Part shown: positions 34,052 to 52,800 of the stretch, piece by piece
How positions within the stretch are numbered: position 1 is the first letter of the stretch
How the letters are laid out: the number at the start of each line of letters is the position of its first letter
NCBI GenBank assembly: GCA_002839995.1
Contig: PGZC01000006.1
Coordinates: 5,804 to 69,803 of the forward strand
DNA: 64,000 nucleotides
Direction of reading: 5' to 3'
Source: Gammaproteobacteria bacterium HGW-Gammaproteobacteria-4
Lineage (GTDB): Bacteria > Pseudomonadota > Gammaproteobacteria > Xanthomonadales > Xanthomonadaceae
The notes under the pieces: generated by a model
Database searches by the model: none
What the model was told of the DNA's origin: nothing
Seen by the model: only the letters and a program-made list of their open reading frames with translations
Translations under genes and position numbers: made by a program

Positions 34052-34330
34052 ATGCGCATCAACGCCGCAGAATTCAAGGCCAAGTGCCTGAAACTCATCG
34101 ATGACGTCGCCACAACGCACGAGCCGCTGGTCATCACCAAGCGCGGCAAGCCGGTTGCACGCGTGGTGCCCATCGAGGATGAGCAACCGCGCGGACTGTT
34201 TGGCCATATGAAAGGCACCGGGAAAATCGTCGGCGACATCATCAACGTGCCACACGTGCCCTGGGCCGCGGAGACGGGCGAGGAAGACCATCTGTACCTG
34301 CCTGTGAACCCGCAGGACGGCAAGTCATGA
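34052..34330 (+). CDS. type II antitoxin, Phd/YefM family
   Basis: MRINAAEFKAKCLKLIDDVATTHEPLVITKRGKPVARVVPI is a typical Phd/YefM N-terminus. GAGGA SD upstream. 4-nt overlap with the PIN gene. Confidence 0.85.
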   Translation: MRINAAEFKAKCLKLIDDVATTHEPLVITKRGKPVARVVPIEDEQPRGLFGHMKGTGKIVGDIINVPHVPWAAETGEEDHLYLPVNPQDGKS

Positions 34331-34758
34331 GCGTTGAGGACAGGCCGCTCCTGCTCGATACCCACACCTGGATCTGGCTGTCGTTCGGCACGCCCGGTGT
34401 GTTCAGCCCCGTCATGCAGAAGCGGCTTGATCTTGCCAACCGCGCAAACCCCCTGCACGTCTCGTTCATTTCGACCTGGGAAGTGGCGATGCTCAGTGTC
34501 AAGGGGCGGCTGAATCTGGACATGCCCACGCAAGCCTGGATCGAACAATCGCTGTCGCATCCCGCGATGCGTCTGCTCGCGCTCGCTGACCCCGCCATCG
34601 CCGTCGAATGCAACGAACTGCCTGGCGATTTCCACGCCGACCCGGCGGATCGCCTGCTCGTCGCCACAGCGCGCATCGGCGGCTACACCCTGGTCACCCG
34701 CGACCAGAAGATTCTGGACTATGGCAAAGCGGGCCATGTGAGCGTTTTGGCCGCATGA
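34327..34758 (+). CDS. vapC: type II toxin, PIN-domain VapC family
   Basis: LLLDTHTWIWL ... FISTWEVAML ... DPADRLLVATA ... TRD: the conserved acidic PIN residues are in place. Confidence 0.85.
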   Translation: MSVEDRPLLLDTHTWIWLSFGTPGVFSPVMQKRLDLANRANPLHVSFISTWEVAMLSVKGRLNLDMPTQAWIEQSLSHPAMRLLALADPAIAVECNELPGDFHADPADRLLVATARIGGYTLVTRDQKILDYGKAGHVSVLAA

Positions 34759-34788: not shown

Positions 34789-37359
34789 ATGAGCCCTGAA
34801 ACTCCTGACGAAGTTGAGATTCTGCGAACAATGCGGGTCGACAACGAGCCGCAGTACATCGCGCATGTCCGACCTGACAGTACATGCCGTCAGTCGCTTG
34901 AGTCGCATCTACGCGGCGTTGCTCGCCTCGCCGCAGAATTCGCCGCGAAATTTGGGCTGTCCACGCACGGCGAATTGATTGGGCTTTTGCATGATCTGGG
35001 TAAATACAGCGCGGCGTTCCAAGCCTACATCAAGTCCGCAGCCAACTTGTTGGATCAGGATACCGACGAAGAATTTGTCGATGCGAAGGGTCTGAAAGGC
35101 AAGATCGATCATTCGACCAGTGGCGCGCAGTTCATCTGGCAAAACCTGGCAGATAAAGACGCCTTGGCGCAAATTGCCGGGCAAGTTCTCGCGTTATGCG
35201 TCGCATCCCATCATTCCGGCCTGATCGACTGTCTGACATCCACACCCGGAAAGCCCGCGGAAGACGGTTTCACAAAACGCATGGGCAAGCCGGATTCGAA
35301 GACGAATCTGCAAGAAGTGCTTGCCAAAGCCGATCCGGCACTGTTGGCCGAGGCGGGCCGCCTCATCGCGCAACCACAGGTCGCATCGGCATTCCAGGTC
35401 TGGCTTTCGAAGCTCCTCAACAAGGCGCCCGGCGATACACCGAACGCCAAGGTGGCGAGCCCTGTCATACAACAACAAATCGGTCTGCTCGTGCGCGCGT
35501 TGTTCAGCTGCCTGATCGACGCCGATCGCATCGACACCGCCGATTTCGAACACCCCGGTCGTGCCCGACGTCGGCTTCGCGGGAATTACACGGCTTGGGA
35601 GACGTTGATCGCGCGGCTCGAATCGCGTCTGGCGGAGTTCGAGCCGACCCAGCCCATCGACGCGCTGCGTCGGGACATTTCACGTCATTGCCTCGAGGCC
35701 GCCACGCGCGATACCGGCATCTACACGCTGACCGTGCCGACCGGTGGCGGCAAGACGCTGGCGAGCCTGCGCTTCGCGCTTCACCATGCGCACAAACACA
35801 GCCTCGACCGCGTCATTTACGTCATTCCGTTCACATCCATCATCGACCAGAACGCCGAAGTCGTCCGCAAGATTCTCGAACCGGAAGGTGTCGAAGCGGG
35901 GAGCGTGGTGCTGGAACATCACTCCAACCTAACGCCAGAAGATCAGACCTGGCGCTCCAAAATCCTCTCCGAAAACTGGGACGCGCCGGTTGTCTACACC
36001 ACGATGGTTCAGTTGCTGGAAACGTTGTTCGGCGCGGGCACGCGCGGCGCGCGGCGGATGCACCAGCTTGCCAATGCCGTGCTGGTTTTCGACGAAATCC
36101 AAAGCCTGCCTGTGCGTTGCGTGCATCTTTTCAACAACGCCATGAATTTCCTTGCCGACCACTGCCACAGCACGGTCGTGCTTTGCACCGCCACCCAGCC
36201 GTTGTTGGATCGGGTTGATGCGGTCAAAGGCGCGATCCGCATACCGCCCGGCAACGAGCTCATCCGCGACGTTCGGCAACTTTTCGATGATCTGAAACGA
36301 GTCGATGTGCTGAACCTTCGCAAGCCAGGCGGCTGGCCGCAGGAAGACATCGCGGCGCTGGCGCAACAGCAAATCGAAGCCGTCGGCAGTTGCCTCGTGA
36401 TCGTGAACACGAAAAAAGCCGCGCAGGCGCTTTATCGCTTGAGCCGCAATCATCCCGATACCGCCGTTTTCCACCTCAGTACCAGTATGTGCCCGGCGCA
36501 CCGCAAGGCCCGTCTTGAGGTCATCCGCAGCCGTCTGGAAGCAAATCCGCCGTTACCGACCCTGTGCTTCAGCACGCAGCTGATCGAAGCTGGGGTTGAT
36601 GTCGATTTTGCGTCCGTGATCCGTTACGCCGCCGGTCTCGATTCCATCGCGCAAGCGGCCGGCCGATGCAACCGCAACGGTCGGCTCGACCGTGGCAATG
36701 TCTACATCGTCAACCCGCGCGACGAAGACGAAAACTTGGGAAAATTGCCCGACATTCTGATCGGGCGCGAAAAGGCCATCCGCGTGCTCGACGACTACGA
36801 CGCGGACCCTGAAAAGTACGGCTGGAACCGCATCGGCCCGGAAGCGATGGCTTGGTACTACACCAACTACTTTTTCCAGCGCGCCAATGAAATGAGCTAC
36901 CCCGTGTCCGGTAACGAGATCGGTCGCGACGATACCTTGCTCAATCTTCTATCGGGCAACCCGCATGCCGTCAGCGATTACGCGCGCACTCACAACAGAC
37001 AGCCTCCGGCGCGCTTTCTGCGACAATCCTTCATGGCTGCCGCACGCGCTTTCAAGGCCATCGACGCCCCGACGCGCGGCGTGATCGTGCCGCACGGCGA
37101 AGCCGGCAAAGCGCTGATCGCCGACTTGTGCGCGGCTTACCTGCCCGACAAGGAATTCGAGCTGTTGCGCCGCGCCCAGCAATACAGCGTCAACGTCTTG
37201 CCACGCCAACTCGAAGCCCTTAGCAAGGCGAGTGTCGTGCGCGAAGTCCAGGACGGCACCGGCATCCTGTATCTGGTCGATTCCCGCTACTACAGCGAAG
37301 AATTCGGTCTTTCCGACACCCCCGAAGGCTTGATGGAGGTTCTCTGTGTCTCATCGTAA
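34789..37359 (+). CDS. cas3: CRISPR-associated helicase/nuclease Cas3 (HD + SF2 helicase), type I-C context
   Basis: HD motif (HLRGVARLA...[10 protein letters not shown]...HHSG...DADRID). Helicase motifs ([44 protein letters not shown]). Confidence 0.95.
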
Positions 37360-38059
37360 CAACATCGAATTCAAAGTCAGCGCGCGCTATGCGCTCTTCA
37401 CCGATCCGCTCACCCGAATCGGCGGCGAGAAGTGCTCGTACCACTTGCCAACCTACGAAGCCCTCAAGGGCATCGCCAAGTCGATCTACTGGAAGCCGAC
37501 CTTCATCTGGGTCATCGACGAAGTGCGGGTGATGAAGCCGATCCGAACCCAGACCAAGGGCACGAAGCCGATCGACTATGGCGGCGGCAATACGCTGGCC
37601 ATCTACACCTTCCTTGCGGATGTCGAATACCAGGTCCGCGCGCACTTCGAGTGGAACCAACATCAGCCCGGGCTGGCGGACGACCGTATCGACGGCAAGC
37701 ACTTCGCCATCGCCCGACGCATGCTGGAACTCGGTGGGCGACAGGACATTTTTCTTGGCACGCGCGATTGCCAGGGCTACGTCGAACCCTGCGAGTTCGG
37801 TTCGGCGGGGGGGCACTACGACGATATCGACCGCATGGACTACGGTCTGACTTTCCACGGCTTCGACTACCCCGACGAAACCGGCGAAGCGATTCTCACC
37901 GCTCGCTTCTGGCGGCCCGTCATGGAATTCGGCCGAGTGCGCTTCCCGAAGCCGGAAGCCTGCGACATCCGCAAGCCCATACGCCCCATGACCGCGAAGC
38001 AGTTCGGAAAGGGCAAGTTGCGTGGCGTCGAAGCCGAAGCCACCGAGCTGGGGGTGTGA
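37346..38059 (+). CDS. cas5: Cas5c/Cas5d (type I-C pre-crRNA endonuclease subunit)
   Basis: GTG start. [57 protein letters not shown] is typical of Cas5d. Overlaps the cas3 end by 14 nt. Confidence 0.92.
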
Positions 38060-38060
38060 G

Positions 38061-39968
38061 ATGAGCTGGATACAGAAGCTCTACGAGACCTACGAGCAAT
38101 GCAAGGGGCACGAACCGGAGGGTGCGGAGCGTCTACTCCCCGTCAGCCACACCTTTCAGCAAGCGCATGTGGAAGTCTCGCTCGATTCACTGGGCAACTT
38201 CAAATCTGCACGGACGCTGGGCAAGGAAGACACCGTCATCCCCGCGACCGAGAAATCGGCTGGCCGGACAGGTAAAGCGCCGCCGCCGCATCCCCTGTGC
38301 GACAAGGTGCAGTATTGCGCGGGGGACTACACAGAGATGGGGGGTGGCAAGCCTTCGTTCTTCAAAGACTACGAAACGCAGTTGGCGGCCTGGTGTGCGT
38401 CCGCTCATAGGCACCCCAAAGCGGAAGCGATTCTTGCCTATGTACGAAAAAACCGGGTCATCGCAGATTTGGTTACCGAAAGCGTCCTGCATCTCGGGCC
38501 TGACGGAAAACTGCTGAACAACTGGGGCCGCGATACCCCAGTGCCCGAGGTGTTCAAGGTTCTTACGTCTGATGCCAAGACCAAGTTACGTGATCAGGGG
38601 AATGTTTTTATCCGCTGGCGAGTTCATGAGCCAGACAATCCATGCTCGGCAGTCTGGGAAGACGAGGGCTTGCAAGCAGCCTGGGCGAAATACGATGCCA
38701 GCGCCAAGGCAACGCCTGGCATCTGCATGGTGACGGGTGAAGCCGGGGTCAACTTGGCGTTGAGCCATCCCAAGCGTATTCGCCACGCGGGCGACGGCGC
38801 AAAACTCATCAGTGCCAATGACGGTTCGGGCTTCACTTTCCGTGGCAGGTTTACCGACGACACCGGCCAGCAAGCTTGCGGCGTAGGCTACGAAGTCACG
38901 CAAAAAGCCCACAACGCGCTGCGCTGGCTGATCCAGCGTCAGGCCTACCGCAACGGCGATCAGGTCATCGTCTCGTGGGCTGTTGGCGGGGCTCCCATTC
39001 CCGATCCTTTCGGCAGCTCGCTCACGCTACTGCTTGCAGGCGGCGACGCGGCGGAAGCACCCACTGTCATCGTCGACACCGACGCAGGGCAAGCCTTCGC
39101 CAAACGCCTGAGTCTGGCGATGAGAGGGTATCGCGCACGACTCGGTCCGGCCGACGACATTGTCGTGATGGGGCTGGATTCCGCTACGCCCGGGCGAATG
39201 GCGATCACCTTTTACCGAGAGTTGACCGGTTCGGAATTTCTTGCGCGGATCGAACGCTGGCACATCGACTTCGCCTGGCATCAGAACTTCGGCAAGGACA
39301 AGCACTTCGTCGGCGCACCCGCGCCGCACGACATTGCCGAGGCTGCGTATGGGCGCCGCCTCGACGACAAGCTCAAGAAGGCTACAGTTGAGCGCTTGCT
39401 GCCGTGCATCATCGATGGTCAGGCGCTGCCGCGCGACCTCCTTGATTCGACCATCCGCCGCGCCTGCAATCGGGTCGGGCTGGAGCGCTGGGAGTGGGAA
39501 AAATTTCTGGGTATCGCCTGCGGTCTGTACCGAGGCGCTTTCAAAAACGAGGGGTACGAGATGACACTGGAGACAAACCGGCGTAGCCGGGACTACCTGT
39601 ATGGGCGTTTGCTGGCGGTCGCCGAGCACATTGAAAGTCGCGCCTTGTACGTAGCAGGCGAAAAGCGCGACACCACTTCCTCCAAGCTGATGCAGCGATT
39701 CGCTGACCGGCCTGCGAGCACATGGCGAATTATTGAGCCTGCTCTAACACCCTACATCTCCCGTTTGCGAGCAAAGCGCGCTGGATTCATGTTCGAGATG
39801 GACAAGTTGCTGGATCAAATTATCTCCTGCTTCATGGACGATGACTTTCTTGACGACAGCAAGCTTTCCGGCGAATTCCTGCTCGGCTACCACTGCCAGC
39901 GTCAGGCGCTGAACCCGCCAAAACCCGATGTTGCCACTGCGGTTGAAGAAGACACCTCCGCCGACTAA
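38061..39968 (+). CDS. cas8c: Cas8c/Csd1 large subunit
   Basis: MSWIQKLYETYEQC...VSHTFQQAHVEVSLD...VIPATEKSAGRTGKAPPPHPLCDKVQY: a Csd1-family N-terminus in the canonical position between cas5c and cas7c. Confidence 0.92.
   Translation: MSWIQKLYETYEQCKGHEPEGAERLLPVSHTFQQAHVEVSLDSLGNFKSARTLGKEDTVIPATEKSAGRTGKAPPPHPLCDKVQYCAGDYTEMGGGKPSFFKDYETQLAAWCASAHRHPKAEAILAYVRKNRVIADLVTESVLHLGPDGKLLNNWGRDTPVPEVFKVLTSDAKTKLRDQGNVFIRWRVHEPDNPCSAVWEDEGLQAAWAKYDASAKATPGICMVTGEAGVNLALSHPKRIRHAGDGAKLISANDGSGFTFRGRFTDDTGQQACGVGYEVTQKAHNALRWLIQRQAYRNGDQVIVSWAVGGAPIPDPFGSSLTLLLAGGDAAEAPTVIVDTDAGQAFAKRLSLAMRGYRARLGPADDIVVMGLDSATPGRMAITFYRELTGSEFLARIERWHIDFAWHQNFGKDKHFVGAPAPHDIAEAAYGRRLDDKLKKATVERLLPCIIDGQALPRDLLDSTIRRACNRVGLERWEWEKFLGIACGLYRGAFKNEGYEMTLETNRRSRDYLYGRLLAVAEHIESRALYVAGEKRDTTSSKLMQRFADRPASTWRIIEPALTPYISRLRAKRAGFMFEMDKLLDQIISCFMDDDFLDDSKLSGEFLLGYHCQRQALNPPKPDVATAVEEDTSAD
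39561..39968 (+). CDS. cas11: putative Cas11c small subunit from an internal in-frame start within cas8c
   Basis: In-frame ATG at 39561, preceded by GAGGGG (39549-39554, 6-nt spacer). It would give a 135-aa helical product (MTLETNRRSRDYLYGRLLAVAEHIE...). Internal translation of Cas11 from cas8c is established for type I-C systems. Confidence 0.5.
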   Translation: MTLETNRRSRDYLYGRLLAVAEHIESRALYVAGEKRDTTSSKLMQRFADRPASTWRIIEPALTPYISRLRAKRAGFMFEMDKLLDQIISCFMDDDFLDDSKLSGEFLLGYHCQRQALNPPKPDVATAVEEDTSAD

Positions 39969-39986
39969 TTTCACGAGGACACACCC

Positions 39987-40871
39987 ATGAGCACCCTGCA
40001 AAACAAAATCGACTTCGCCGTGATCTTTCGCGTCACCAATGCCAATCCGAACGGCGACCCGCTCAACGGCAACCGCCCGCGCACCGACTACTCGAACTAC
40101 GGCGAGATGAGCGACGTGTCGATCAAGCGCAAAATCCGCGACCGCCTGCTGGAACGTTGGATCGAGGCCGGCCGCAGCGATGACGGCACCATGATTTTCG
40201 TCCAGTCGGACGACCGCAAGGCGGATGATGCCAAGAGCCTTCGGGCACGGGCCGAAGCCGGGCTTGGCAAAGAGTTGGGGTCGGACAAAACCGTAGAGCT
40301 GGCCTGCAGGAAATGGCTGGATGTCCGCGCCTTCGGCCAGCTTTTCGCGCTCAAGAGCAACAAGAAAGCGGGAAAGAAAAATGAAGATGGATCGGATGCC
40401 GAGGGCGATACCGGCGTATCCATTGGCATACGCGGGCCGGTCACGGTGCAATCCGCTTTCAGCGTCGAGCCCATCGATATCACCAGCCTACAAATCACCA
40501 AGAGCGTAAGCGGCGAAGGTGATGGCGCCAAACGCAGTTCGGACACCATGGGCATGAAGCATCGTGTTGACCAGGGCGTGTATGTCTTCAAGGGCAGCAT
40601 GAACCCGCAACTTGCGGAAAGAACGGGCTTCGCCGACACCGACGCCGCAGCGATCAAGGCTGTGTTGCCTCGACTTTTCGAGAACGACGAAGCCGCGGCG
40701 CGCCCCGCTGGCAGCATGGAAGTGCTGAAAGTGATCTGGTGGCAACACAACTGCAAGGCCGGGCAATACTCGTCGGCCAAGGTGCATCAGACCCTTGATG
40801 TTGCCGCCGATGGCAGTTACACGCTGAAGCCGCTTGAAAAGCTCGTTCCTGAGGAAATCAACGGATTCTGA
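39987..40871 (+). CDS. cas7: Cas7c/Csd2 backbone subunit
   Basis: IDFAVIFRVTNANPNGDPLNGNRPRTDYSNYGEMSDVSIKRKIRD: the Csd2/Cas7 signature. Confidence 0.93.
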   Translation: MSTLQNKIDFAVIFRVTNANPNGDPLNGNRPRTDYSNYGEMSDVSIKRKIRDRLLERWIEAGRSDDGTMIFVQSDDRKADDAKSLRARAEAGLGKELGSDKTVELACRKWLDVRAFGQLFALKSNKKAGKKNEDGSDAEGDTGVSIGIRGPVTVQSAFSVEPIDITSLQITKSVSGEGDGAKRSSDTMGMKHRVDQGVYVFKGSMNPQLAERTGFADTDAAAIKAVLPRLFENDEAAARPAGSMEVLKVIWWQHNCKAGQYSSAKVHQTLDVAADGSYTLKPLEKLVPEEINGF

Positions 40872-40875
40872 CCCG

Positions 40876-41169
40876 CTATCGCCGCCCAGCCCAATACCCC
40901 GGGCGGCGGGCGTGGTGGGCGAGGGCAATGATCCGCACGCTGTCGGGCGATACCCGGTAGATCAAGGAGTAGGGAAACGTGGGCAAGATGAAGACGCGGG
41001 TTCGGTATCGACCAATGCTTCCCATCTCGGGAAAGGATTGGAGCTGCGTCAACGCGCGCTCGAACGCGTCCGCGAAACGATCGGCCGCATCGAATGCCAA
41101 TTCGCCCAGATACCAGTCGAGCGCAGCGTCGAAATCGGCCTGTGCTTCGCTGGAGACGCTAATCCGCAC
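40876..41169 (-). CDS. type II toxin, RelE/ParE family
   Basis: 97 aa. ...AQADFDAALDWY...FADAFERALTQLQSFPEMGS...YSLIYRVSPDSVRIIALAHHARRP matches the ParE/RelE plasmid-stabilisation fold pattern. Antisense to the cas operon. Confidence 0.85.
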   Translation of the reverse strand: MRISVSSEAQADFDAALDWYLGELAFDAADRFADAFERALTQLQSFPEMGSIGRYRTRVFILPTFPYSLIYRVSPDSVRIIALAHHARRPGYWAGRR

Positions 41170-41422
41170 AGGCCGCCTTGGCGGCGGCGATGCGTTCGCG
41201 AATGCGGCGCATGACTTCGTCGGCCGGCACCCACGTCGTCCGCCCTGCGTCCATATCCTTCACTCGCCGCGCGATCTCCTCATCCCACGCCTGTGCAATG
41301 GCCGCTGGCGTGTCTTCGGCCGGCGCTTCAAGGCTGAGGATCAAGCGCTCGATCAACTCGCCGCGCTCGCGCGCGCTGAGCTGCAATGCCTGCGCCTCGA
41401 CATCTTTCAATATGGCGGCCAT
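41159..41422 (-). CDS. addiction-module antitoxin (TIGR02574-like component)
   Basis: 87 aa. LSARERGELIERLILSLEAP...AWDEEIARRVKDMDAGRTTWVPADEVMRRI is typical of this antitoxin family. Overlaps the toxin start by 11 nt. Confidence 0.8.
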   Translation of the reverse strand: MAAILKDVEAQALQLSARERGELIERLILSLEAPAEDTPAAIAQAWDEEIARRVKDMDAGRTTWVPADEVMRRIRERIAAAKAACAD

Positions 41423-41463
41423 GACGTACTCCAGATCGGGCGACCGAACCCAATCTTAGCACC

Positions 41464-42081
41464 GTGAACGACACCGACCCCATCCCCATCTCCGCGCTCC
41501 AGCACTGGAGCTACTGCCCACGCCAATGCGCACTGATTCATGTGGAGCAGGTGTTCGCCGATAACGTCTACACCGCACGCGGCAATGCGGTGCATGCGCT
41601 GGTCGATGAGCCCGGCGCCGAGCGCAAAGGCACGGTACGTATCGAGCGCGCCATGCCCTTGTGGTGCGATCGCCTGGGCCTGATCGGCAAGGCCGATCTG
41701 GTGGAGTTCGATTCCGGCGGCAACGCCTACCCGGTGGAATACAAACACGGTCCGCGCCGGCAAAAACAGCACGACGACCTGCAACTGGCGGCGCAAGCCC
41801 TGTGTCTCGAAGAAATGACCGGAAAACCGGTAACCGAGGGAGCGATCTATCACTTCAGCTCGCGGCGTCGGCGCGAAGTGCCGATTACGCCCGAGTTGCG
41901 GGCGCTCGTGACGCAGGCAACGAGCGAGGTGCGCGCCATGATGAGCAACGCGCAGTTGCCCGCGCCGGTGAACGATGCGCGCTGTCGCCATTGTTCGCTC
42001 AGCGAAATCTGCCAGCCAAAAGTGGTCGCCGAAGTCGATCGCTACCACGTCCTGCTGCGCAACCTCCGCGAGCCGACATGA
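41464..42081 (+). CDS. cas4: Cas4 (RecB-like nuclease with Fe-S cysteines)
   Basis: GTG start. ISALQHWSYCPRQCAL ... GKADLVEF...EYK ... ARCRHCSLSEIC: one N-terminal and three C-terminal Cys, plus the D..E.K nuclease motif. Confidence 0.92.
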   Translation: MNDTDPIPISALQHWSYCPRQCALIHVEQVFADNVYTARGNAVHALVDEPGAERKGTVRIERAMPLWCDRLGLIGKADLVEFDSGGNAYPVEYKHGPRRQKQHDDLQLAAQALCLEEMTGKPVTEGAIYHFSSRRRREVPITPELRALVTQATSEVRAMMSNAQLPAPVNDARCRHCSLSEICQPKVVAEVDRYHVLLRNLREPT

Positions 42082-43118
42082 CCGCCTATCACCTGCTTAA
42101 TACGCTGTACGTCACTACCGGTGGCGCCTACCTGCACCTGGACAACGACACCGTGCGCATCGAGGTGGAGCGCGAGACGCGCCTGCGTGTGCCGCTGCAC
42201 CATCTGGGCGGCATTGTCAGCCTGGGCGATGTGTTGATTTCACCGGCACTGATCGGCCGCTGCGCCGAAAGCGGTATCGGCATGACCCTGCTCGATCGCA
42301 ACGGTCGCTTTCGTGCCCGCATCGAGGGCCCGGTCAGCGGCAACGTGCTGTTGCGCAAAGCGCAGCATGAGATCAGCAGCAGCCCGGAAAGCGCGCTGGC
42401 GCTGGCCCGGCAAATGGTGCTCGGCAAGATCAAGAACACACGCACCGTGTTGCAGCGCGGTGCGCGCGAAGCCAAGGCCGACACGGATCGCGAAGCACTC
42501 GATGCTGCGGTACGCAAGCTCGATGCCTCGCTGCGTGCGGTGACTGTTGCCGACGAAATGAATGGCTTGCGCGGTGTGGAGGGCGAAGCCGCACGCACCC
42601 ATTTTTCGGTGTTAGATCGCCTTGTGAAACCGGAGTTGCGGCAGGCGTTCGCCTTTGCTGGCCGCACCCGCCGCCCGCCGCGCGATGCCGTCAACGCGGT
42701 GCTGTCTTTTCTGTACACCATGCTTACTCACGATTGCCGCTCCGCGCTGGAAACCGTCGGGCTCGACCCGCAGGTTGGCTTCCTGCATGTGTTGCGGCCG
42801 GGCCGGCCCGCATTGGCACTCGATCTGGTCGAAGAGTTTCGCGCCGTCATGGCGGACCGGCTCGCGCTTACCTTGATCAATCGCGGCCAGATAAAGCCCA
42901 CTGACTTTCGCACTACCGAGGGTGGCGGCGTGCTGCTGGAAGGCGACGCGCGGCGCACCGTGGCGATCGCCTGGCAGGAGCGCAAGCAGGAGTTGCTGCG
43001 GCACCCATTGCTGGATAGCGAAGTGCCGTTTGGCTTGCTGCCGCAAATCCAGGCACGCCTGCTTGCGCGCACTCTGCGCGGTGACGTCGAAGCCTATCTC
43101 CCGTTCCAGGCGCGCTGA
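42078..43118 (+). CDS. cas1: Cas1 integrase, type I-C
   Basis: ATG at 42078 ([29 protein letters not shown]...). [26 protein letters not shown] and [23 protein letters not shown] motifs. The listed ORF 41661..43118 is an upstream frame extension. Confidence 0.93.
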
Positions 43119-43120
43119 AC

Positions 43121-43411
43121 ATGCTCGTCATCGTGTGCTATGACGTTTCCACCGAAACCCGGGAAGGGCGACGCCGCCTGCGTCAGGTGGCAAAAGCTTG
43201 CGAAGGCGTTGGCCAGCGCGTACAAAAGTCGGTGTTCGAGTGCCGCGTCGATCAGACGCAGATCGAAGCGCTGGAGCGTCGATTGCTGGATATCATCGAA
43301 GCGGAGCAGGACTGTTTGCGCTTCTACCGGTTGACCGAACCAGTTGAACTGCATGTCAAAGAGTTCGGCAATTTCAAGGCAGTGGATTTTGATGGCCCCC
43401 TGGTGGTGTAG
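43121..43411 (+). CDS. cas2: Cas2
   Basis: [41 protein letters not shown]: canonical Cas2. Confidence 0.93.
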
Positions 43412-43594: not shown

Positions 43595-46500
43595 GTCGCC
43601 GGCTCTCATGGGAGCCGGCGCGGATTGAAACGTGCGAGCCGACCACCGGGCGATATATGCCGCGATGGTCGCCGGCTCTCATGGGAGCCGGCGCGGATTG
43701 AAACGGCTGGTACCGCGCGGACGGCACACGCAGATTCCGTCGCCGGCTCTCATGGGAGCCGGCGCGGATTGAAACAAACTCAGCACTGAGACTTGCGCGC
43801 TGTGCAGGAGGTCGCCGGCTCTCATGGGAGCCGGCGCGGATTGAAACCAACAATGCGCGCAAGACCCGTGGATGGCTGGCAGTCGCCGGCTCTCATGGGA
43901 GCCGGCGCGGATTGAAACGGCAGGCATCACGCTTGAGCAGGCGATGAAGCTAGTCGCCGGCTCTCATGGGAGCCGGCGCGGATTGAAACATGATCACGAA
44001 CTCCGGCACAGACAGGAACTCCATGTCGCCGGCTCTCATGGGAGCCGGCGCGGATTGAAACAGCGGACTCAAGGCGCGCGCGCTCCGCGGCATCGTCGCC
44101 GGCTCTCATGGGAGCCGGCGCGGATTGAAACTTTACCAGGACGCCCGCCGGGAAGTACAAGGAAGGTCGCCGGCTCTCATGGGAGCCGGCGCGGATTGAA
44201 ACAGCGCCACTCTTTCCGCGTGTTGTTTCGCCAACGGTCGCCGGCTCTCATGGGAGCCGGCGCGGATTGAAACGCTCGACACAATAGACTTGGTATCAGC
44301 CCCGATGTCGCCGGCTCTCATGGGAGCCGGCGCGGATTGAAACTCGCGGACGATCTCGGCATACGCCACCACGTTTGCGTCGCCGGCTCTCATGGGAGCC
44401 GGCGCGGATTGAAACACCGGCGGCGGGCTTGATGGCCTGATTGACCGCGTCGCCGGCTCTCATGGGAGCCGGCGCGGATTGAAACACCGCTGAGGGCGAT
44501 CCCAGCGCAGAAGCAGAACAGTCGCCGGCTCTCATGGGAGCCGGCGCTCATGGGAGCCGGCGCGGATTGAAACCGTGCAATTTTGATACAACCGCCGAAT
44601 GGGTCAACGTCGCCGGCTCTCATGGGAGCCGGCGCGGATTGAAACGCGTCGGTGAGCGCGCGCTGCTGTCCGTCCAGCCGTCGCCGGCTCTCATGGGAGC
44701 CGGCGCGGATTGAAACACCGGGCCGCTCATGCCACCGCCGCGGTATTCCTGTCGCCGGCTCTCATGGGAGCCGGCGCGGATTGAAACGCTCCTGCTGAGT
44801 TTACGGACACGCAAAACGTGCGTCGCCGGCTCTCATGGGAGCCGGCGCGGATTGAAACCTCGCTGAGGTGGATCTGGCGATCCTCGGTTTGCGTCGCCGG
44901 CTCTCATGGGAGCCGGCGCGGATTGAAACCGTGAGCATGTCGTAGGCGCTGATGCCTTCGGCCTGTCGCCGGCTCTCATGGGAGCCGGCGCGGATTGAAA
45001 CCAGCTTATTGCGAGTGACGTGGCGGCGTCGAACGGTCGCCGGCTCTCATGGGAGCCGGCGCGGATTGAAACAGCACGAAGCCGTGCGCCGGCTTGGTGT
45101 TATCAAGTCGCCGGCTCTCATGGGAGCCGGCGCGGATTGAAACGCTCGATAACCTCAACGCGCACAACGGCTCAGTGTCGCCGGCTCTCATGGGAGCCGG
45201 CGCGGATTGAAACTTTTTGCCTGTTGCAATTCCATATGGCGGGTCAGGTCGCCGGCTCTCATGGGAGCCGGCGCGGATTGAAACACGATCAAGCCATCTG
45301 ACAGCCGGATCACCGGGGTCGCCGGCTCTCATGGGAGCCGGCGCGGATTGAAACCCCACACGCCGCCAGGAACTCCGGCATGCTCAAGGTCGCCGGCTCT
45401 CATGGGAGCCGGCGCGGATTGAAACGGATTTCGGCACCAAGCCCGATGGCTGGTTCGCGGTCGCCGGCTCTCATGGGAGCCGGCGCGGATTGAAACTCAC
45501 CGCAACGCCACGCAGCGCCGCCTACCGCGGTCGCCGGCTCTCATGGGAGCCGGCGCGGATTGAAACTACGGCTTGCCCCTGCCGAAATGCCGTGCATGCT
45601 GGTCGCCGGCTCTCATGGGAGCCGGCGCGGATTGAAACCTACGCGCTTCCATCCGCAGCCGGATCTGCACCGGTCGCCGGCTCTCATGGGAGCCGGCGCG
45701 GATTGAAACACGGGCGTTTCAGAACTGAATGCAAGCTCGACGGGTCGCCGGCTCTCATGGGAGCCGGCGCGGATTGAAACAGCCTGCCCGCCGCCGTGTT
45801 TGCTGTGCCAGGCGGTCGCCGGCTCTCATGGGAGCCGGCGCGGATTGAAACATCTGGCGAGATGGAAGCAATGCGCAAGGATGCGGGTCGCCGGCTCTCA
45901 TGGGAGCCGGCGCGGATTGAAACATCGAGCAGGGCATCTCGTACGGCCTGCGGCGCGGTCGCCGGCTCTCATGGGAGCCGGCGCGGATTGAAACGGCTTC
46001 GAACAGGTTCGGCATCAGCGGCCTCTCGTCGCCGGCTCTCATGGGAGCCGGCGCGGATTGAAACAGGAGTCGCGCCTCGATCCGTCCGCCGTGTCGCGGT
46101 CGCCGGCTCTCATGGGAGCCGGCGCGGATTGAAACGATGTAATCGAGCGTCCAGGCTTGCAGACCACGGGTCGCCGGCTCTCATGGGAGCCGGCGCGGAT
46201 TGAAACAATGAAGTCGCTGAGCGCGCGTTGTGAGTGCTTGTCGCCGGCTCTCATGGGAGCCGGCGCGGATTGAAACCCGCTGCCTTCCGCGAGCTGCGGC
46301 TTGTAAGAGGTCGCCGGCTCTCATGGGAGCCGGCGCGGATTGAAACACCGGGCGCCGAGTACATCCCGATTGAAAACACGTCGCCGGCTCTCATGGGAGC
46401 CGGCGCGGATTGAAACACGTCGAGCGCCACACCGAGCGCGCGCGGCGGCGTCGCCGGCTCTCATGGGAGCCGGCGCGGATTGAAACGAGATCGAGTGCAG

Positions 46501-49500
46501 CGAGGCCGCTGCCGAACGCGTCGCCGGCTCTCATGGGAGCCGGCGCGGATTGAAACAACGCCGTGGTGCAGGAGTTTTTGCCATCCGGCCCGTCGCCGGC
46601 TCTCATGGGAGCCGGCGCGGATTGAAACAGGGCGTCTCGCGCATCGAAGCGCTGTGGCTGGGCAGTCGCCGGCTCTCATGGGAGCCGGCGCGGATTGAAA
46701 CGTCGCGTTGGCGGTCAATGCCGGGCTGGTCAAAGTCGCCGGCTCTCATGGGAGCCGGCGCGGATTGAAACATCATGCTCGAATTCGAGGAAACCGCATA
46801 ATGCGCGTCGCCGGCTCTCATGGGAGCCGGCGCGGATTGAAACGCGCGTGAGGCAGGCATCGCGCATGTCAGACAACGGTCGCCGGCTCTCATGGGAGCC
46901 GGCGCGGATTGAAACGATCCGCGTCAACCTCGACGCGCGCGGCATCATGTCGCCGGCTCTCATGGGAGCCGGCGCGGATTGAAACGGGGTAGTGCTCGAC
47001 ATCGTAGCTGATGCCATCGTCGCCGGCTCTCATGGGAGCCGGCGCGGATTGAAACCTGCCAGGTTGGGATTGGCGCTGGTGGAAAGCCCGTCGCCGGCTC
47101 TCATGGGAGCCGGCGCGGATTGAAACTCGCCCGTAGACGACCCGCCGCCCTGACCACCCCGTCGCCGGCTCTCATGGGAGCCGGCGCGGATTGAAACGGT
47201 TGCGAGCAATGCGGCGCGGGCCTTGGCCTGATGTCGCCGGCTCTCATGGGAGCCGGCGCGGATTGAAACGCGCTCAACGCCGGCGTCGCCGGCAGCGACA
47301 TCGTCGCCGGCTCTCATGGGAGCCGGCGCGGATTGAAACCAGGTTGGGCAGATCACCAACCTGCGCGATCAAGTCGCCGGCTCTCATGGGAGCCGGCGCG
47401 GATTGAAACTGGCGCAAGCGCAAGCACGTCGGCGCGCACGTCGGCGTCGCCGGCTCTCATGGGAGCCGGCGCGGATTGAAACGCGCCCGTAGACGACCCG
47501 CCGCCCTGACCACCCGTCGCCGGCTCTCATGGGAGCCGGCGCGGATTGAAACCCCAAGCCCGCACGTGTAGGGCACCCCCGCTGGCTGTCGCCGGCTCTC
47601 ATGGGAGCCGGCGCGGATTGAAACCCGCGAAACGCGAGGGTGAGAAAGACGCGCGCGCGGGTCGCCGGCTCTCATGGGAGCCGGCGCGGATTGAAACGCA
47701 GGCGCCGAGGTACAGCACACCATGCGGTCCAGTCGCCGGCTCTCATGGGAGCCGGCGCGGATTGAAACTACCCGTACACCAGCACGATGCCGATCGACGG
47801 GATCGTCGCCGGCTCTCATGGGAGCCGGCGCGGATTGAAACAGACGTATACACCAACTCGCCGGCCTGGCGTTGCGTCGCCGGCTCTCATGGGAGCCGGC
47901 GCGGATTGAAACTCGTTGCCGTAGTACGCAATCAGGAATGCGCGAACGTCGCCGGCTCTCATGGGAGCCGGCGCGGATTGAAACAACGATCTCGCTGCAG
48001 AAACTACAGCCGCTGCAGGTCGCCGGCTCTCATGGGAGCCGGCGCGGATTGAAACCAGCGCAACGATGTCGTCCCACACTGGCGCCGCGTCGCCGGCTCT
48101 CATGGGAGCCGGCGCGGATTGAAACCACGCTGCGGCGATCGCGCTGCGCGCGGCTGGAGTCGCCGGCTCTCATGGGAGCCGGCGCGGATTGAAACTGGCC
48201 GCTACCCGTACGGATCGGCCCCTGACGTAGTCGCCGGCTCTCATGGGAGCCGGCGCGGATTGAAACGACAAGGGAATCAAAGGCATGCTCCGCGGCTTTA
48301 TGTCGCCGGCTCTCATGGGAGCCGGCGCGGATTGAAACCTCCATCGAGCGGGTGAGCGTGGGCAGGGCGAGCTCGTCGCCGGCTCTCATGGGAGCCGGCG
48401 CGGATTGAAACTGTACGTCGATGTCGATCTCGACGTCGTGCCCATGTCGCCGGCTCTCATGGGAGCCGGCGCGGATTGAAACCACCCGGCGCGCTGATAC
48501 TCACGTGTGGCGTTGGTCGCCGGCTCTCATGGGAGCCGGCGCGGATTGAAACGCAGTTTTTGCGGAGTTGGCGATTGGTAGCGTTACGTCGCCGGCTCTC
48601 ATGGGAGCCGGCGCGGATTGAAACATGGCCAACAATTGAGTAGCAAACTGCAGCACGAAGTCGCCGGCTCTCATGGGAGCCGGCGCGGATTGAAACATCA
48701 ACGATCGCCTGGCTGAAACCTTCGAAGATCGTCGCCGGCTCTCATGGGAGCCGGCGCGGATTGAAACGGTTTTGCCGCTGCTGCCACGCGGCTTCGGTGG
48801 CGTCGCCGGCTCTCATGGGAGCCGGCGCGGATTGAAACATCACCAAACGTGGTGACCGATTGCAGGCTCGAGTCGCCGGCTCTCATGGGAGCCGGCGCGG
48901 ATTGAAACAACATCGACCTGACCGCCAACCCAGCCGCCGCAAGGGTCGCCGGCTCTCATGGGAGCCGGCGCGGATTGAAACGTGGCCATGGCGGTCATCT
49001 CTGGTGAGTTGGTTCGTCGCCGGCTCTCATGGGAGCCGGCGCGGATTGAAACCGGCGCGCGTGGACGCTGCGCCCTGGCGACACCGGTCGCCGGCTCTCA
49101 TGGGAGCCGGCGCGGATTGAAACGAACTGAGCAAGCGAGGCCGCTGATGCTTAACCGTCGCCGGCTCTCATGGGAGCCGGCGCGGATTGAAACACGAAGA
49201 TCGGCCGCGACGTGTTCCCCAAGGCGCAAGGTCGCCGGCTCTCATGGGAGCCGGCGCGGATTGAAACAGCCGGTGCCGGAGGGTGGCAAATGAAACGCCT
49301 TGTCGCCGGCTCTCATGGGAGCCGGCGCGGATTGAAACATGGCCGCCCGGCTGCTCGTACCGGCGCACCCGTGGTCGCCGGCTCTCATGGGAGCCGGCGC
49401 GGATTGAAACGCGCAGGGAGTTTGGCTTGATCATTGGGCGTTGGTCGCCGGCTCTCATGGGAGCCGGCGCGGATTGAAACCTCGAACTCGATGGTGGCTT

Positions 49501-52183
49501 CGGTGGCGGCTGTGGTCGCCGGCTCTCATGGGAGCCGGCGCGGATTGAAACGGCAGGCGCTTGCCGCCGATGCCGATGTCGATCAGTCGCCGGCTCTCAT
49601 GGGAGCCGGCGCGGATTGAAACGCCCACGGCATCGGAATATGCAGGGTCCGGCTCGTCGCCGGCTCTCATGGGAGCCGGCGCGGATTGAAACAGGAGTCG
49701 CGCCTCGATCCGTCCGCCGTGTCGCCGTCGCCGGCTCTCATGGGAGCCGGCGCGGATTGAAACGCTGCCTCCCGGCGGCTCGCCTTTGGTCTGACTGGTC
49801 GCCGGCTCTCATGGGAGCCGGCGCGGATTGAAACTAGCTCTGGAAAACGTCAAGGTACGCGCCGGCCAGTCGCCGGCTCTCATGGGAGCCGGCGCGGATT
49901 GAAACAGTCATGACCCCAACCAGAGAGATCGACATGAGCAAGTCGCCGGCTCTCATGGGAGCCGGCCGGATTGAAACTTGGCATCATCGACGCAGGGACT
50001 GCAAGAGCAGGTCGCCGGCTCTCATGGGAGCCGGCGCGGATTGAAACAACGGCAGTGGGCCGTTGGCGTCGTTTGCCGGTCAGGGTCGCCGGCTCTCATG
50101 GGAGCCGGCGCGGATTGAAACGTCAAAACCAACGGCCTTGAGGCAGTGATCGGGGTCGCCGGCTCTCATGGGAGCCGGCGCGGATTGAAACCAAAACAAA
50201 CCCCGGGGGCCATCCATGGCCGCGCTGTCGCCGGCTCTCATGGGAGCCGGCGCGGATTGAAACCGATGGTGGCGTTGTCACCGATGGCCTGGCCATCTAG
50301 TCGCCGGCTCTCATGGGAGCCGGCGCGGATTGAAACAGCCCGACCTCGCCATGTGCAACATCGACCAGCGTCGCCGGCTCTCATGGGAGCCGGCGCGGAT
50401 TGAAACTTTCCCTGCGGATTTCCAAGGCCTATGGCGTGGGTCGCCGGCTCTCATGGGAGCCGGCGCGGATTGAAACATCGAGCGCGAAGGCGATGCTTCG
50501 GCTGCAGCGGTCGCCGGCTCTCATGGGAGCCGGCGCGGATTGAAACGCCGAGCTCGAGCTCAGCGAGTCGTGCCTTGGCCAGGTCGCCGGCTCTCATGGG
50601 AGCCGGCGCGGATTGAAACTCTGAGCAAGGCCGAGGCCCGCGCGATCGGCTGCGTCGCCGGCTCTCATGGGAGCCGGCGCGGATTGAAACCCGGCCGCGA
50701 GGACGATCGCGCCGTGGCATTGAACGGTCGCCGGCTCTCATGGGAGCCGGCGCGGATTGAAACTCCTGCGGCGTACATCCGGGTGGATCGGGTCTGACTG
50801 TCGCCGGCTCTCATGGGAGCCGGCGCGGATTGAAACATTGTTGTCTCCCGGCCGCAGGGTGCGGCGTGGGGGTCGCCGGCTCTCATGGGAGCCGGCGCGG
50901 ATTGAAACCGCGATATCTGCGGCGTACGCGACCTCGAAAACGTCGCCGGCTCTCATGGGAGCCGGCGCGGATTGAAACAGCCCGTCGATGGTGTTTGACT
51001 ACCGCGGCGCCGGCGTCGCCGGCTCTCATGGGAGCCGGCGCGGATTGAAACCCCGTGCTGCTGGAAAACACCCTGCACAAGATGGTCGCCGGCTCTCATG
51101 GGAGCCGGCGCGGATTGAAACTTCGATTACGCGAAAAATGCTCGATAGCACGGCGGGTCGCCGGCTCTCATGGGAGCCGGCGCGGATTGAAACACGCGCG
51201 GTACCGCCAAGCGACTGCGGGCCGAGGTCGCCGGCTCTCATGGGAGCCGGCGCGGATTGAAACAACGCGCAGGCCGCCGCCGGCGGTGCGGTTGCGGTCG
51301 CCGGCTCTCATGGGAGCCGGCGCGGATTGAAACCATCGGGTCGATCCACGGCATTGGCGGCGGCAGGGTCGCCGGCTCTCATGGGAGCCGGCGCGGATTG
51401 AAACATCGGCCAGTTCGTCAATGCGCGCTTTGGCGCGGGGTCGCCGGCTCTCATGGGAGCCGGCGCGGATTGAAACTTTTCCAGCTCATCTGCGGTACTC
51501 CTTGCGATTGTCGCCGGCTCTCATGGGAGCCGGCGCGGATTGAAACCCGCCAGTCCACGGTGTATCGCGGTCCATTACTGTCGCCGGCTCTCATGGGAGC
51601 CGGCGCGGATTGAAACCGTGTCGCTCCGAGACAAGCGCGACCCTATAGGAAGTCGCCGGCTCTCATGGGAGCCGGCGCGGATTGAAACCACAAACGCGGT
51701 GCGCAGACACGCATGCAGCATGGTCGCCGGCTCTCATGGGAGCCGGCGCGGATTGAAACACTCACTCGTGGACAATCATCAGCGGCACCGACTGTCGCCG
51801 GCTCTCATGGGAGCCGGCGCGGATTGAAACGAGACCGAAGAGGATGCACGCGCATTCGCCGACTGTCGCCGGCTCTCATGGGAGCCGGCGCGGATTGAAA
51901 CGCGCAAGTGCGATCACCGATATGCCAACTCGGTGTCGCCGGCTCTCATGGGAGCCGGCGCGGATTGAAACGCGAGGGCCACCAACGGGCGTTACTCGCC
52001 CACATGTCGCCGGCTCTCATGGGAGCCGGCGCGGATTGAAACTTCGTGTGCCGCAGGGTGATCGCGCCTTGCTCGGGTCGCCAGCTCTCATGGGAGCCGG
52101 CGCGGATTGAAACTTGCCAGTGCCCTGCGGCCCGTGAATGACCATGGTCGCCGGCTCTCATGGGAGCCGGCGCGGATTGAAAC
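43595..52183 (+). CRISPR. type I-C CRISPR array: 121 contiguous repeats, 120 spacers
   Basis: I walked the array repeat by repeat. The 37-nt repeat is GTCGCCGGCTCTCATGGGAGCCGGCGCGGATTGAAAC (8-bp stem GCCGGCTC/GAGCCGGC). The first copy is 43595-43631 and the last is 52147-52183. Spacers are 33-37 nt. Variant repeats are at 44521-44573, 49942-49977 and 52077-52113. Confidence 0.97.
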
Positions 52184-52524
52184 GCGTAGGCATGGATCAA
52201 TACTGGATTAGCACCAGGAGCCTATCGGACTTGAGCCGTTGCGATGAAACCGGAGCCTTCGCTTCGCTCGATCGGTTGCTTCGCAACAACGCCTGCTGCG
52301 CAGGCTACGCCGTCGACTGCTTCGCGGTTACGCGGGGCTGCGCCCGACACTTCGCCGCTATCCGGCTCGCTCGGTCGCCCACAGGGTGGGCTCCTACAAA
52401 AAACGGTTGCGCTTACCAGTAGCAGCCCACCCCGTTGGCGACCTGTCGGAAAGACCATCAATGCGTGCATTCGCACCAAACCGGCTTTCCCTCGCTACGA
52501 TCGGTCAAGTTCGACAGGCTGCTA
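52184..52524. repeat. 341-bp REP/BIME-like cluster occupying a spacer position in the array
   Basis: Lies between repeat 121 and an intact repeat at 52525. Contains CGGTTGCTTCGCAACAACGCC..., TCGCCCACAGGGTGGGCTCCTACAAAA...GTAGCAGCCCACCCCGTTGGCGAC and CGCACCAAACCGGCTTTCCCTCGCTACGATCGGTCAAG, colinear with the cluster at 30060-30290. Confidence 0.8.
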
Positions 52525-52800
52525 GTCGCCGGCTCTCATGGGAGCCGGCGCGGATTGAAACCTCATTGGGGGCCGCGTTTTCTTTTGTGATAGGGGTCGC
52601 CAGCTCTCAGGATGCTCTGAACAACCGCCATCCGCCGTCATTGCGAGCGTTCAAGCCTTTAGCCGCGAGGCCGAAGGCCGTGGCGGGAAGCAATCCAGCT
52701 CTTTGTTTTTCCGAACACTCTGGATTGCCGCGTCGCTTCGCTCCTCGCAATGACAGCTTGTTCAGAGCATCCTTCATGGGAGCGGGCGTGGATTGAAAAC
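52525..52800 (+). CRISPR. distal array remnant: one intact repeat, one spacer, one degenerate terminal repeat split by an insertion
   Basis: Repeat at 52525-52561 and a 34-nt spacer at 52562-52595. The terminal repeat is present as GTCGCCAGCTCTCA (52596-52609) plus TTCATGGGAGCGGGCGTGGATTGAAAAC (52773-52800). Confidence 0.85.
52610..52772. mobile_element. MITE-like nested-palindrome element inserted in the terminal CRISPR repeat
   Basis: 163 bp with perfect 15-bp terminal inverted repeats GGATGCTCTGAACAA / TTGTTCAGAGCATCC. Inner inverted pairs are GTCATTGCGAGCG / CGCTCCTCGCAATGAC and GCAATCCAG / CTGGATTGC. The flanking repeat halves share TCA, a possible target-site duplication. A partial relative lies at 29975-30050. 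Confidence 0.7.

Follow-up and report, generated by a model that had tools for sequence, protein, structure and literature searches.

[quoted passage not shown] 2015, PMC4390879). These toxin-antitoxin (TA) pairs are archaeal, mostly of the VapBC kind, and have no fixed slot. CreTA works differently (PMC9458426; reviewed in PMC12737573): its antitoxin, an RNA derived from a repeat, depends on Cascade, and the cell is therefore killed when cas function is lost. In the type VI Cas13a-HicAB system, called 'CCTA', direct Cas13a-HicB and crRNA-HicAB interactions have been demonstrated (Chen et al. 2026, PMC13448076). [quoted passage not shown] 2020, PMC7157771). Type I-C, ParE, and HicA go unmentioned in a 2025 review on the coupling of TA and CRISPR systems, where type II TA systems appear only through the homology between VapD and Cas2. 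The full texts searched contain no description of TA pairs at the cas7-cas4 junction of type I-C loci, which is not proof of novelty. Here, we focus on a type I-C locus that carries such a pair, located in a stretch of 64,000 nucleotides (the window), and on its relatives.

The type I-C operon of the window and its antisense gene pair

Window positions 34789–43411 on the plus strand hold a full type I-C set in the order cas3-cas5-cas8c-cas7 ... cas4-cas1c-cas2, as assigned with Pfam and NCBIfam. The interference module consists of cas3 (34789–37359), cas5d (37346–38059), and cas8c/Csd1 (38022 or 38061 to 39968), all three recognized by Pfam, and ends with cas7 (Csd2; 39987–40871; PF05107, E=5.8e-67; TIGR02589 Cas7/Csd2, E=2e-90). 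The adaptation module opens with cas4 (41464–42081, GTG start; TIGR00372, E=7e-36) and continues with cas1c (42078–43118; TIGR03640, E=2.5e-152) and cas2 (43121–43411; TIGR01573, E=8.9e-20). All of these genes are on the plus strand, as is the CRISPR array (43595–52561), in which 121 repeats (GTCGCCGGCTCTCATGGGAGCCGGCGCGGATTGAAAC) alternate with spacers of 33–37 nt. The gene content, the lack of cas6, and the repeat end ATTGAAAC identify the locus as type I-C.

Between the two modules, on the minus strand, lie the genes of a ParE-family toxin of 97 amino acids with a GTG start (40876–41169; PF05016 ParE_toxin, E=1.3e-13) and an antitoxin of 87 amino acids with an ATG start (41159–41422; PF09720, E=5e-11; TIGR02574 'addiction module component', E=6.6e-13). 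The two genes overlap by 11 nt; 4 nt separate the cas7 stop from the toxin stop, and 41 nt separate the antitoxin ATG from the cas4 GTG. An earlier note on this DNA had described an antisense ParE-family TA pair between cas7 and cas4, and this description is correct in all its coordinates and distances. In the public annotation, Cas7 is PKM08758.1, and PKM08759.1, from a gammaproteobacterial MAG, is a member of the toxin cluster. A different pair, made of a Phd/YefM antitoxin (34052–34330, plus strand; PF02604, E=5.3e-12) and a PIN toxin (34327–34758, plus strand; PF01850, E=3.2e-8), is encoded on the same strand as the cas genes and ends 30 nt ahead of cas3.

The toxin scores 51.7 bits against PF05016, for which the curated cut-off is 23, and thus belongs to the ParE branch by sequence; it has no match in NCBIfam. 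Its AlphaFold (AF2) model, built with 33 homologs, has a pLDDT of 90. When the model was used to search PDB folds, the top 23 matches were all ParE toxins (TM 0.74–0.82). TM values are 0.78–0.82 against ParE of P. aeruginosa, PaaA2-ParE2, ParE1/2 of M. tuberculosis, and ParE1 of Caulobacter, and 0.43–0.64 against RelE, YoeB, and YafQ; the predicted fold is therefore of the ParE type and not of the RelE/YoeB type. The antitoxin is modeled as four helices with no recognizable DNA-binding fold, and neither a sequence search nor a fold search found a solved relative in the PDB. In alignments, the N-terminal ~60 amino acids of the antitoxin are conserved, about as well as Cas4 (median 69%), and the C-terminal ~20 amino acids form at least three classes that co-vary with the toxin classes.

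Within the class of the window, dN/dS is 0.04–0.30 for the toxin and 0.08–0.24 for the antitoxin, values indicating that both genes are under purifying selection and are kept as coding genes. Because the curated family cut-offs are passed, the toxin model matches the ParE fold, and dN/dS is 0.04–0.30, the reading frames are not chance ones. The layout is that of a type II TA operon: small adjacent genes, the antitoxin upstream, the 11-nt overlap, and a Shine-Dalgarno sequence and an extended -10-like motif ahead of them. The antitoxin C-terminus also tracks the toxin class (rho 0.58), as partners in a type II system do.

The gene pair itself is ordinary. It shares with ParDE and PaaA2-ParE2 (PDB 6xrw, 5cw7, 3kxe, 8c26) the toxin fold, as the TM values of 0.78–0.82 indicate, and a small helical antitoxin whose gene lies upstream of the toxin gene and overlaps it. 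It differs in that the antitoxin belongs to PF09720 and not to the ribbon-helix-helix family of ParD, and in that the toxin bears a conserved basic tail, SRRPGYWAGRR.

Like CreTA, the pair is an element of the addiction type that lies inside a type I cas operon, and the parallel drawn in the earlier note goes no further than this concept. There is no ectopic CRISPR repeat (up to 3 mismatches) between 33.5 and 43.6 kb, and Rfam finds nothing in the cas region besides the array. With neither a degenerate ectopic repeat giving an antitoxin RNA nor a small RNA toxin, a CreTA-type mechanism is absent from the cas operon of the window. In contrast to CreTA, both parts of the self-contained TA pair are proteins and Cas-independent; the cas genes can go while the pair stays.

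A recurrent toxin-antitoxin slot between cas7 and cas4

The exact toxin occurs on 16 metagenome contigs, always in the arrangement cas7-[ParE<-antitoxin]-cas4. Toxin homologs at 73, 71, 56, and 40% identity share the cas7|cas4 slot in other I-C loci, and two homologs at 44–46% identity are located outside the slot. Cas4 was used as the query of an alignment scan with one genome per species, and the best 80 loci (62–83% Cas4 identity) were kept. Most of them belong to Lysobacterales, Thiobacillus, Gallionella, Nitrotoga, or Burkholderiales and their relatives; isolates are represented, for example by Tepidimonas sp. HKU77, Denitratimonas tolerans, and Thiocapsa sp. KS1. Both cas7 and cas4 are present in 78 of the 80 loci, which form the denominator for the junction counts.

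A TA cassette or its remnant is found between cas7 and cas4 in 67 of these 78 species-level loci (86% of the Cas4 clade nearest the query). The remaining 11 have a canonical short junction of 15–109 nt. The interrupted junctions span 220–2785 nt, most commonly ~600 nt, and clustering of their open reading frames shows that every insert holds a TA gene or a remnant of one. The comparison of related loci with and without the cassette, suggested in the earlier note, comes out at 67 to 11 when TA cassettes of any family and their remnants are counted, and the interruption that the note took to be unusual for a type I-C operon is the majority state in the related clade. Since the sample consists of the Cas4 sequences closest to the query, the 86% occupancy is not to be extended to all I-C loci; in the distant I-C loci of Thermus plasmids, cas4 is contiguous with cas7c.

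The slot is occupied by at least six TA families, on either strand and sometimes stacked. The combination of PF09720 antitoxin and ParE, on the minus strand with respect to the cas genes, is the only occupant in 22 loci. HicA with an unassigned upstream partner is the only occupant in 16 loci, and DUF433 with DUF5615 in 7, both on the plus strand. Also on the plus strand, a few loci each carry a putative antitoxin with PIN, MNT with HEPN, or Gp49/HigB with an HI1420-type antitoxin. Two-family cassettes, intact or partial and of mixed strands, are present in 10 loci, and some loci retain single-gene remnants on one strand or the other. The named isolates of this sample (Tepidimonas sp. HKU77, Denitratimonas tolerans KACC 17565, Extensimonas soli, and Thiocapsa sp. 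KS1) have HicA-type or DUF433/DUF5615 cassettes oriented like the cas genes, and the loci with ParE all come from MAGs. Pfam supports the assignment of HicA, DUF433+DUF5615, PIN, MNT+HEPN, and Gp49+HI1420; the presumed HicB-like partner of HicA, which matches nothing in Pfam or NCBIfam, is named by its position. Packing is tight: 3–7 nt separate the cassettes from cas7, and same-direction cassettes abut or overlap the cas4 start. Most of the families run in the direction of the cas genes. Because the families are many and mostly co-directional, a general explanation of the slot cannot rest on collision with antisense transcription, as had been supposed for the window.

Genomes commonly contain TA pairs, which are mobile, and it could be argued on that ground that the cassette is a neutral, one-off insertion limited to this strain. 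Nothing else speaks for this explanation. Of the 78 species, 67 have the slot filled, as do 16 independent contigs from this population; toxins within the slot have diverged down to 40% identity, and the genes are under purifying selection. A neutral accident is thus effectively refuted, and the outcome 'unique to this strain', which the earlier note had set as one that would speak against its proposal, is contradicted by the same counts. The cas7|cas4 junction is a recurrent TA slot at the seam between interference and adaptation modules in beta- and gammaproteobacterial I-C loci. A tblastn search of 72,556 plasmids with the toxin gave no match, and thus no sign of a plasmid origin; Cas4 matched only distant I-C and I-D loci on plasmids, at <60% identity.

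Other junctions of the same operons differ in how often they are interrupted. The cas8|cas7 junction has a median gap of 0 nt and an insert of >150 nt in 1 of 74 loci. At cas4|cas1, an insert of ~700 nt is present in 14 of 78 loci, and 11 of the 14 inserts are verified minus-strand TA pairs (RHH+MazF/PemK in 8 loci, Phd+PIN_3 in 3). Among the 11 loci with a canonical cas7|cas4 junction, three have an insert at cas4|cas1: L074 and L085 with RHH+MazF, and L073 with an unclassified insert. A TA pair upstream of cas3 is also seen in L001/L002 and in L103/L104, where it is a Phd/PIN pair of the window type; a homolog of this pair lies between cas3 and cas5 in L092, and one operon (L084) contains three TA pairs.

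Expression signals, reassortment, and survival of the cassette

A generic scan found no terminator-like site and no two-hexamer sigma-70 promoter at the cas7-cas4 junction, and neither a two-hexamer promoter nor a relevant terminator upstream of cas3. The earlier claim that no terminator is present where cas7 and the toxin gene converge is borne out by the junction scan. The spacer between antitoxin and cas4 measures 35–75 nt across loci, mostly 41–57 nt, and is unconserved except for two blocks seen in an alignment of ~34 loci. One is CTCC, conserved in at least 80% of the aligned loci; on the TA strand it is the GGAG that would act as Shine-Dalgarno sequence of the antitoxin (41429–41432, minus strand, 6 nt ahead of the ATG). 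The other is ATGnTAGCAC, 2–12 nt ahead of the cas4 start. On the TA strand it reads TG[CG]TAnCAT and resembles an extended -10 element, 37–45 nt upstream of the antitoxin ATG. In the window, the candidate element of the TA operon is TGCTAAGAT (41453–41461, minus strand); 2 nt lie between it and the cas4 start codon. Transcription of the TA operon is predicted to begin near 41446 (minus strand).

The motif TG[CG]TAnCAT is found in TA copies adjoining cas4 and also in copies away from cas4. Because of the latter, it is assigned to the TA operon, where it would serve as the operon's own promoter element and is not evidence of a cas4 promoter. Since the generic scan returned no two-hexamer promoter, the conserved motif is what this proposal is built on. 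A promoter within the 41-bp spacer had been suggested earlier; a candidate element is indeed located there, but it is assigned to the TA pair and is also conserved in copies away from cas4. The cas4 gene has no recognizable ribosome-binding site, in the window or in any aligned locus. A leaderless cas4 mRNA, starting from a plus-strand -10-like hexamer (nATGnT), was considered and dropped: the spacing suits the window but fails in loci of the Thiobacillus type, and TA copies away from cas4 still have the motif. The cas4-cas1-cas2 genes are most likely expressed by transcription that reads through the antisense cassette, which is the simplest possibility, or from a weak start near the TA promoter. 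The 121-repeat array suggests that adaptation is not abolished and has been working.

These signals bear on the idea that the TA cassette controls the adaptation module. In the antisense ParE form, convergent transcription and a TA promoter at the cas4 start would throttle or condition cas4-cas1-cas2; in the same-strand form, an autoregulated TA promoter would drive the three genes. Stress leading to breakdown of the antitoxin would then raise spacer acquisition. The idea draws on the position of the -10-like element within 2–12 nt of a cas4 start that lacks a Shine-Dalgarno sequence, on the absence of a terminator between the modules, and on co-directional toxins that stop ~20 nt ahead of the cas4 start or overlap it. 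In addition, conservation of the N-terminal domain of the antitoxin equals that of Cas4 (median 69%). The Phd/PIN_3 and RHH/MazF inserts at cas4|cas1 are oriented with their antitoxin start toward cas1, and Tn3 elements, in which TA pairs are located where a regulatory region is shared, provide a precedent (PMC7157771). However, the motif goes with the TA pair even where cas4 is missing, and the antitoxin model has no recognizable DNA-binding fold and no PDB match. A single regulatory logic is improbable for cassettes that belong to unrelated families and face in opposite directions, and 11 of 78 related loci work with no insert at cas7|cas4. Regulatory coupling of this kind is therefore an unlikely explanation.

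Comparison of loci indicates that modules have been exchanged at the junction. Between the window and L011/L013, identity is 25–41% for Cas3/5/8/7, 70–75% for toxin and antitoxin, and 84–97% for Cas4/1/2, and a sliding window places the jump in nucleotide identity, the first breakpoint, at the cas7 stop/toxin stop. Between the window and L017 the pattern is different: Cas5/8/7 are 73–86% identical and Cas4/1/2 87–97%, and toxin and antitoxin are 39% and 64% identical, respectively. Here a block of ~45% nucleotide identity (40937–41187) is flanked by sequence of ~80%, and it covers the toxin core and the antitoxin C-terminus. L013 and L017 share 25–35% identity in Cas3/5/8/7 and 95–100% in Cas4/1/2. 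When vectors of pairwise identity across 29 loci were compared by Spearman correlation, toxin and antitoxin C-terminus correlated with rho 0.58; the coefficients were 0.15 for toxin and Cas4, 0.17 for toxin and Cas7, and 0.12 for Cas4 and Cas7. From the mosaic identities and the correlations it follows that reassortment at the junction has affected the interference modules, the adaptation modules, and the TA specificities alike. The ParE cassette is co-inherited with the adaptation module, and the toxin core and antitoxin C-terminus are exchanged together as one specificity unit.

What becomes of the cassette when cas genes are lost can be read from a second scan, centered on the antitoxin, in which 80 loci on metagenome contigs were kept (62–94% identity to the antitoxin of the window). 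In about 45 of them a divergent cas4 lies 35–57 nt upstream. In another 15 (and 3 weak cases), only the first 5–30 codons of cas4 are present at the right offset, followed by unrelated sequence, as in L129 (MTEADPIPLSAVH); 17 show no trace of cas4. L140 has a cas4 stub and, beyond the toxin stop, the last 10 codons of cas7, and in L120 and L169 the place expected for cas7 is taken by a CRISPR array directly next to the TA pair. By these traces, at least three quarters of the sampled TA copies are, or once were, in the I-C slot. That this ParE lineage is exclusive to cas loci was ruled out by homologs at ordinary chromosomal sites. Many of the ParE homologs at ordinary sites carry cas4 or cas7 stubs.

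Retention of the cassette while the flanking cas genes decay fits a self-preserving addiction cassette and not a guard of cas function. The earlier note had proposed an addiction module against loss of the locus. The question of retention was a sensible one to raise, but decayed loci keep the TA pair when cas4 is gone, or when cas7 and more is gone; the cassette secures itself better than the cas genes around it. Nor is addiction absolute, since the toxin has become a pseudogene in two otherwise intact loci (L039 and L046, with in-frame stops at the same aligned codon) and several slot cassettes are down to one gene.

The same observations weigh against the idea that embedded TAs are back-up abortive-infection modules tied to CRISPR, set off when a phage halts transcription of the host or of the cas genes, when it blocks Cascade, or through direct contact between Cas and TA proteins. 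In favor of the idea, many TA families are enriched at cas7|cas4, cas4|cas1, cas3|cas5, and upstream of cas3. A coupling of immunity and dormancy has been hypothesized (PMC3632139), that of Cas13a and HicAB is experimental (PMC13448076), and RelE/ParE toxins are reported to act in defense (PMC11980606). However, no sequence feature ties release of the toxin to the activity of Cas proteins, this TA lineage persists when cas genes are gone, toxins are pseudogenized in some intact loci, and the diversity of families disfavors a specific protein-protein interface with Cas proteins. We consider immune synergy doubtful.

Proposed explanation and comparison with known systems

The explanation we favor, with a probability of about 0.6, is that a functional, self-contained ParE/PF09720 addiction cassette occupies a conserved, permissive slot at the module seam, where it has ratcheted itself in, is co-transferred with the adaptation module, is swapped by recombination, and opposes deletions that span it, without guarding the cas genes. 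Its action would be that of classical addiction, with a stable ParE that poisons gyrase and a labile antitoxin. It would have landed at a junction without translational coupling, of which the operon has few. Once landed, the cassette would be costly to delete and thus ratcheted in, and it would ride along with cas DNA in horizontal transfer and recombination. It would oppose deletions across the middle of the locus and leave the function of the cas genes unpoliced; cas4-cas1-cas2 would be expressed by upstream read-through over the antisense cassette, or from a weak start near the TA promoter.

The 86% occupancy, the tight packing, and the conserved N-terminus of the antitoxin could equally fit selection for a function at the level of the host. 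A stronger version holds that the cas4-flanking junctions are dedicated TA slots under selection, in which a swappable third module ties acquisition-gene expression or abortive infection to TA status and also acts as a recombination linker for the shuffling of interference and adaptation modules among lineages; we put it forward as a tentative and rather improbable extension. The favored explanation and its rivals are not mutually exclusive.

Should the slot prove to be more than a permissive landing site, the I-C systems of many environmental Proteobacteria have a built-in, swappable TA component, which would bear on adaptation-gene expression, on the persistence and spread of the locus, and on module recombination. 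On the selfish reading, the slot is a clean natural case of a TA pair that ratchets into an operon seam and outlives its host genes, with a bearing on the retention and loss of CRISPR loci and on the clustering of TA pairs with defense genes. In practice, programs that call cas operons automatically and expect an I-C operon to be contiguous will split such loci, and TA pairs flanked by cas4 stubs could mark extinct CRISPR loci.

Among known systems, Cas13a-HicAB (PMC13448076) resembles the slot in the physical integration of a type II TA pair into a CRISPR-cas locus; pairs of the HicA type are also common among the occupants of the I-C slot. In contrast to the interactions demonstrated in the type VI system, the sequence of the I-C slot suggests no such link. 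The Sulfolobales cassettes (PMC4390879) are similar in having type II TA pairs between or within exchangeable cas modules, sometimes several per cassette. The recurrent, multi-copy placement of TA pairs between cas modules that characterizes them is also seen here, with Phd/PIN and ParE pairs in the window and up to three pairs in a relative (L084). A maintenance role for TA pairs in cas cassettes, as raised for the window, is the same idea that had already been proposed for the Sulfolobales; here, the cassette outlives the cas genes. The clade of the window differs from the Sulfolobales in being bacterial and of type I-C, in its conserved cas7|cas4 slot and secondary cas4|cas1 slot with at least six families, and in its tight packing, demonstrable breakpoints, and survival of TA pairs after cas decay.

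The closest formal analogue is found in the Tn3-family transposons. In both cases unrelated TA families (ParE, Gp49, PIN, HEPN/MNT) have been independently acquired at one position adjoining the core genes and their promoter region, in both orientations, and are exchanged through recombination. The two differ in the host element and in the slot, which is beside the res site in the transposon and at the module seam in the cas operon. TA pairs in cas cassettes are already known; it is the conserved multi-family slot, its reassortment, and the survival of the cassette after cas decay that make up the interesting part.

TA pairs at other positions of the I-C operon

Among the 78 related species-level I-C loci, those with the Cas4 nearest to that of the window, cas4 and cas1 are separated by an insert of about 700 nt in 14: L039, L046, L056, L068, L073, L074, L077, L082, L084, L085, L086, L088, L089, and L097 (L-numbers are handles of related loci, and coordinates given after a handle count within that locus). 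Minus-strand toxin-antitoxin (TA) pairs are confirmed in 11 of these inserts, that is, in all but L073, L086, and L088. The confirmed pairs are of two kinds: RHH with MazF/PemK (eight loci) and Phd with PIN_3 (three loci). It is the antitoxin start that faces cas1 in the confirmed pairs, and the antitoxins at this junction are more conserved than the toxins. L103 and L104 are also listed with inserts at cas4-cas1, beside the 14 loci.

Three TA cassettes can be stacked within a single operon, as in L084 (L084:4924-7355), where the gene order is cas7, HicA pair, ParE pair, cas4, PIN_3/Phd, and cas1. The window itself contains a second TA pair, a Phd/YefM antitoxin and a PIN toxin (34052-34758), which shares the orientation of the cas genes; 30 nt separate its end from cas3. 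The position upstream of cas3 is likewise filled in L001/L002 and L103/L104, and a homolog of the window pair (62%/44% identical) is placed between cas3 and cas5 at L092:1375-2129.

Variation at the cas7-cas4 junction

Two minus-strand ParE genes, L039:5423-5713 and L046:5393-5683, are interrupted by an in-frame stop. Both genes are divergent, and their slots between cas7 and cas4 are otherwise intact. The stop codons (TAA and TGA) share aligned codon 59, directly past an invariant arginine; they could represent independent inactivation of the toxin, or something else. In L102, from a Sideroxydans MAG, cas7 is separated from the ParE cassette by a 97-aa ORF (7556-7849) that runs in the same direction as the cas genes and matched neither Pfam nor NCBIfam. 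A Shine-Dalgarno sequence is missing ahead of cas4 both in the window (cas4 start 41464) and in about 30 related aligned loci, and the cas4 start lies 2-12 nt beyond a -10-like motif of the TA.

Array irregularities, and cassette copies at apparently decayed loci

The window array is irregular at 52183-52561, with a 341-nt interval ahead of the last full repeat (52525-52561). The repeat end at 52785-52799 is degenerate, carrying 2 mismatches, and one degenerate repeat lies inside the array (49963-49977).

In two metagenome loci collected around antitoxin homologs, a CRISPR array with an I-C-type repeat (L120:1106-1216 and L169:973-2265) adjoins the ParE/antitoxin cassette at the expected place of cas7, and a degraded cas4 5' end lies alongside the cassette. 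Both appear to be remnants of I-C loci that decayed and left behind the TA or the antitoxin alone. Free-standing TA copies in two further such loci, L140 (antitoxin 2426-2647, toxin 2679-2963) and L129, are bordered by 9-13 cas4 codons; in L140 the final 10 cas7 codons (QLAPEEIDGF) also border the TA. Either both flanks were deleted near the cassette, or the cassette and short cas stubs moved jointly.
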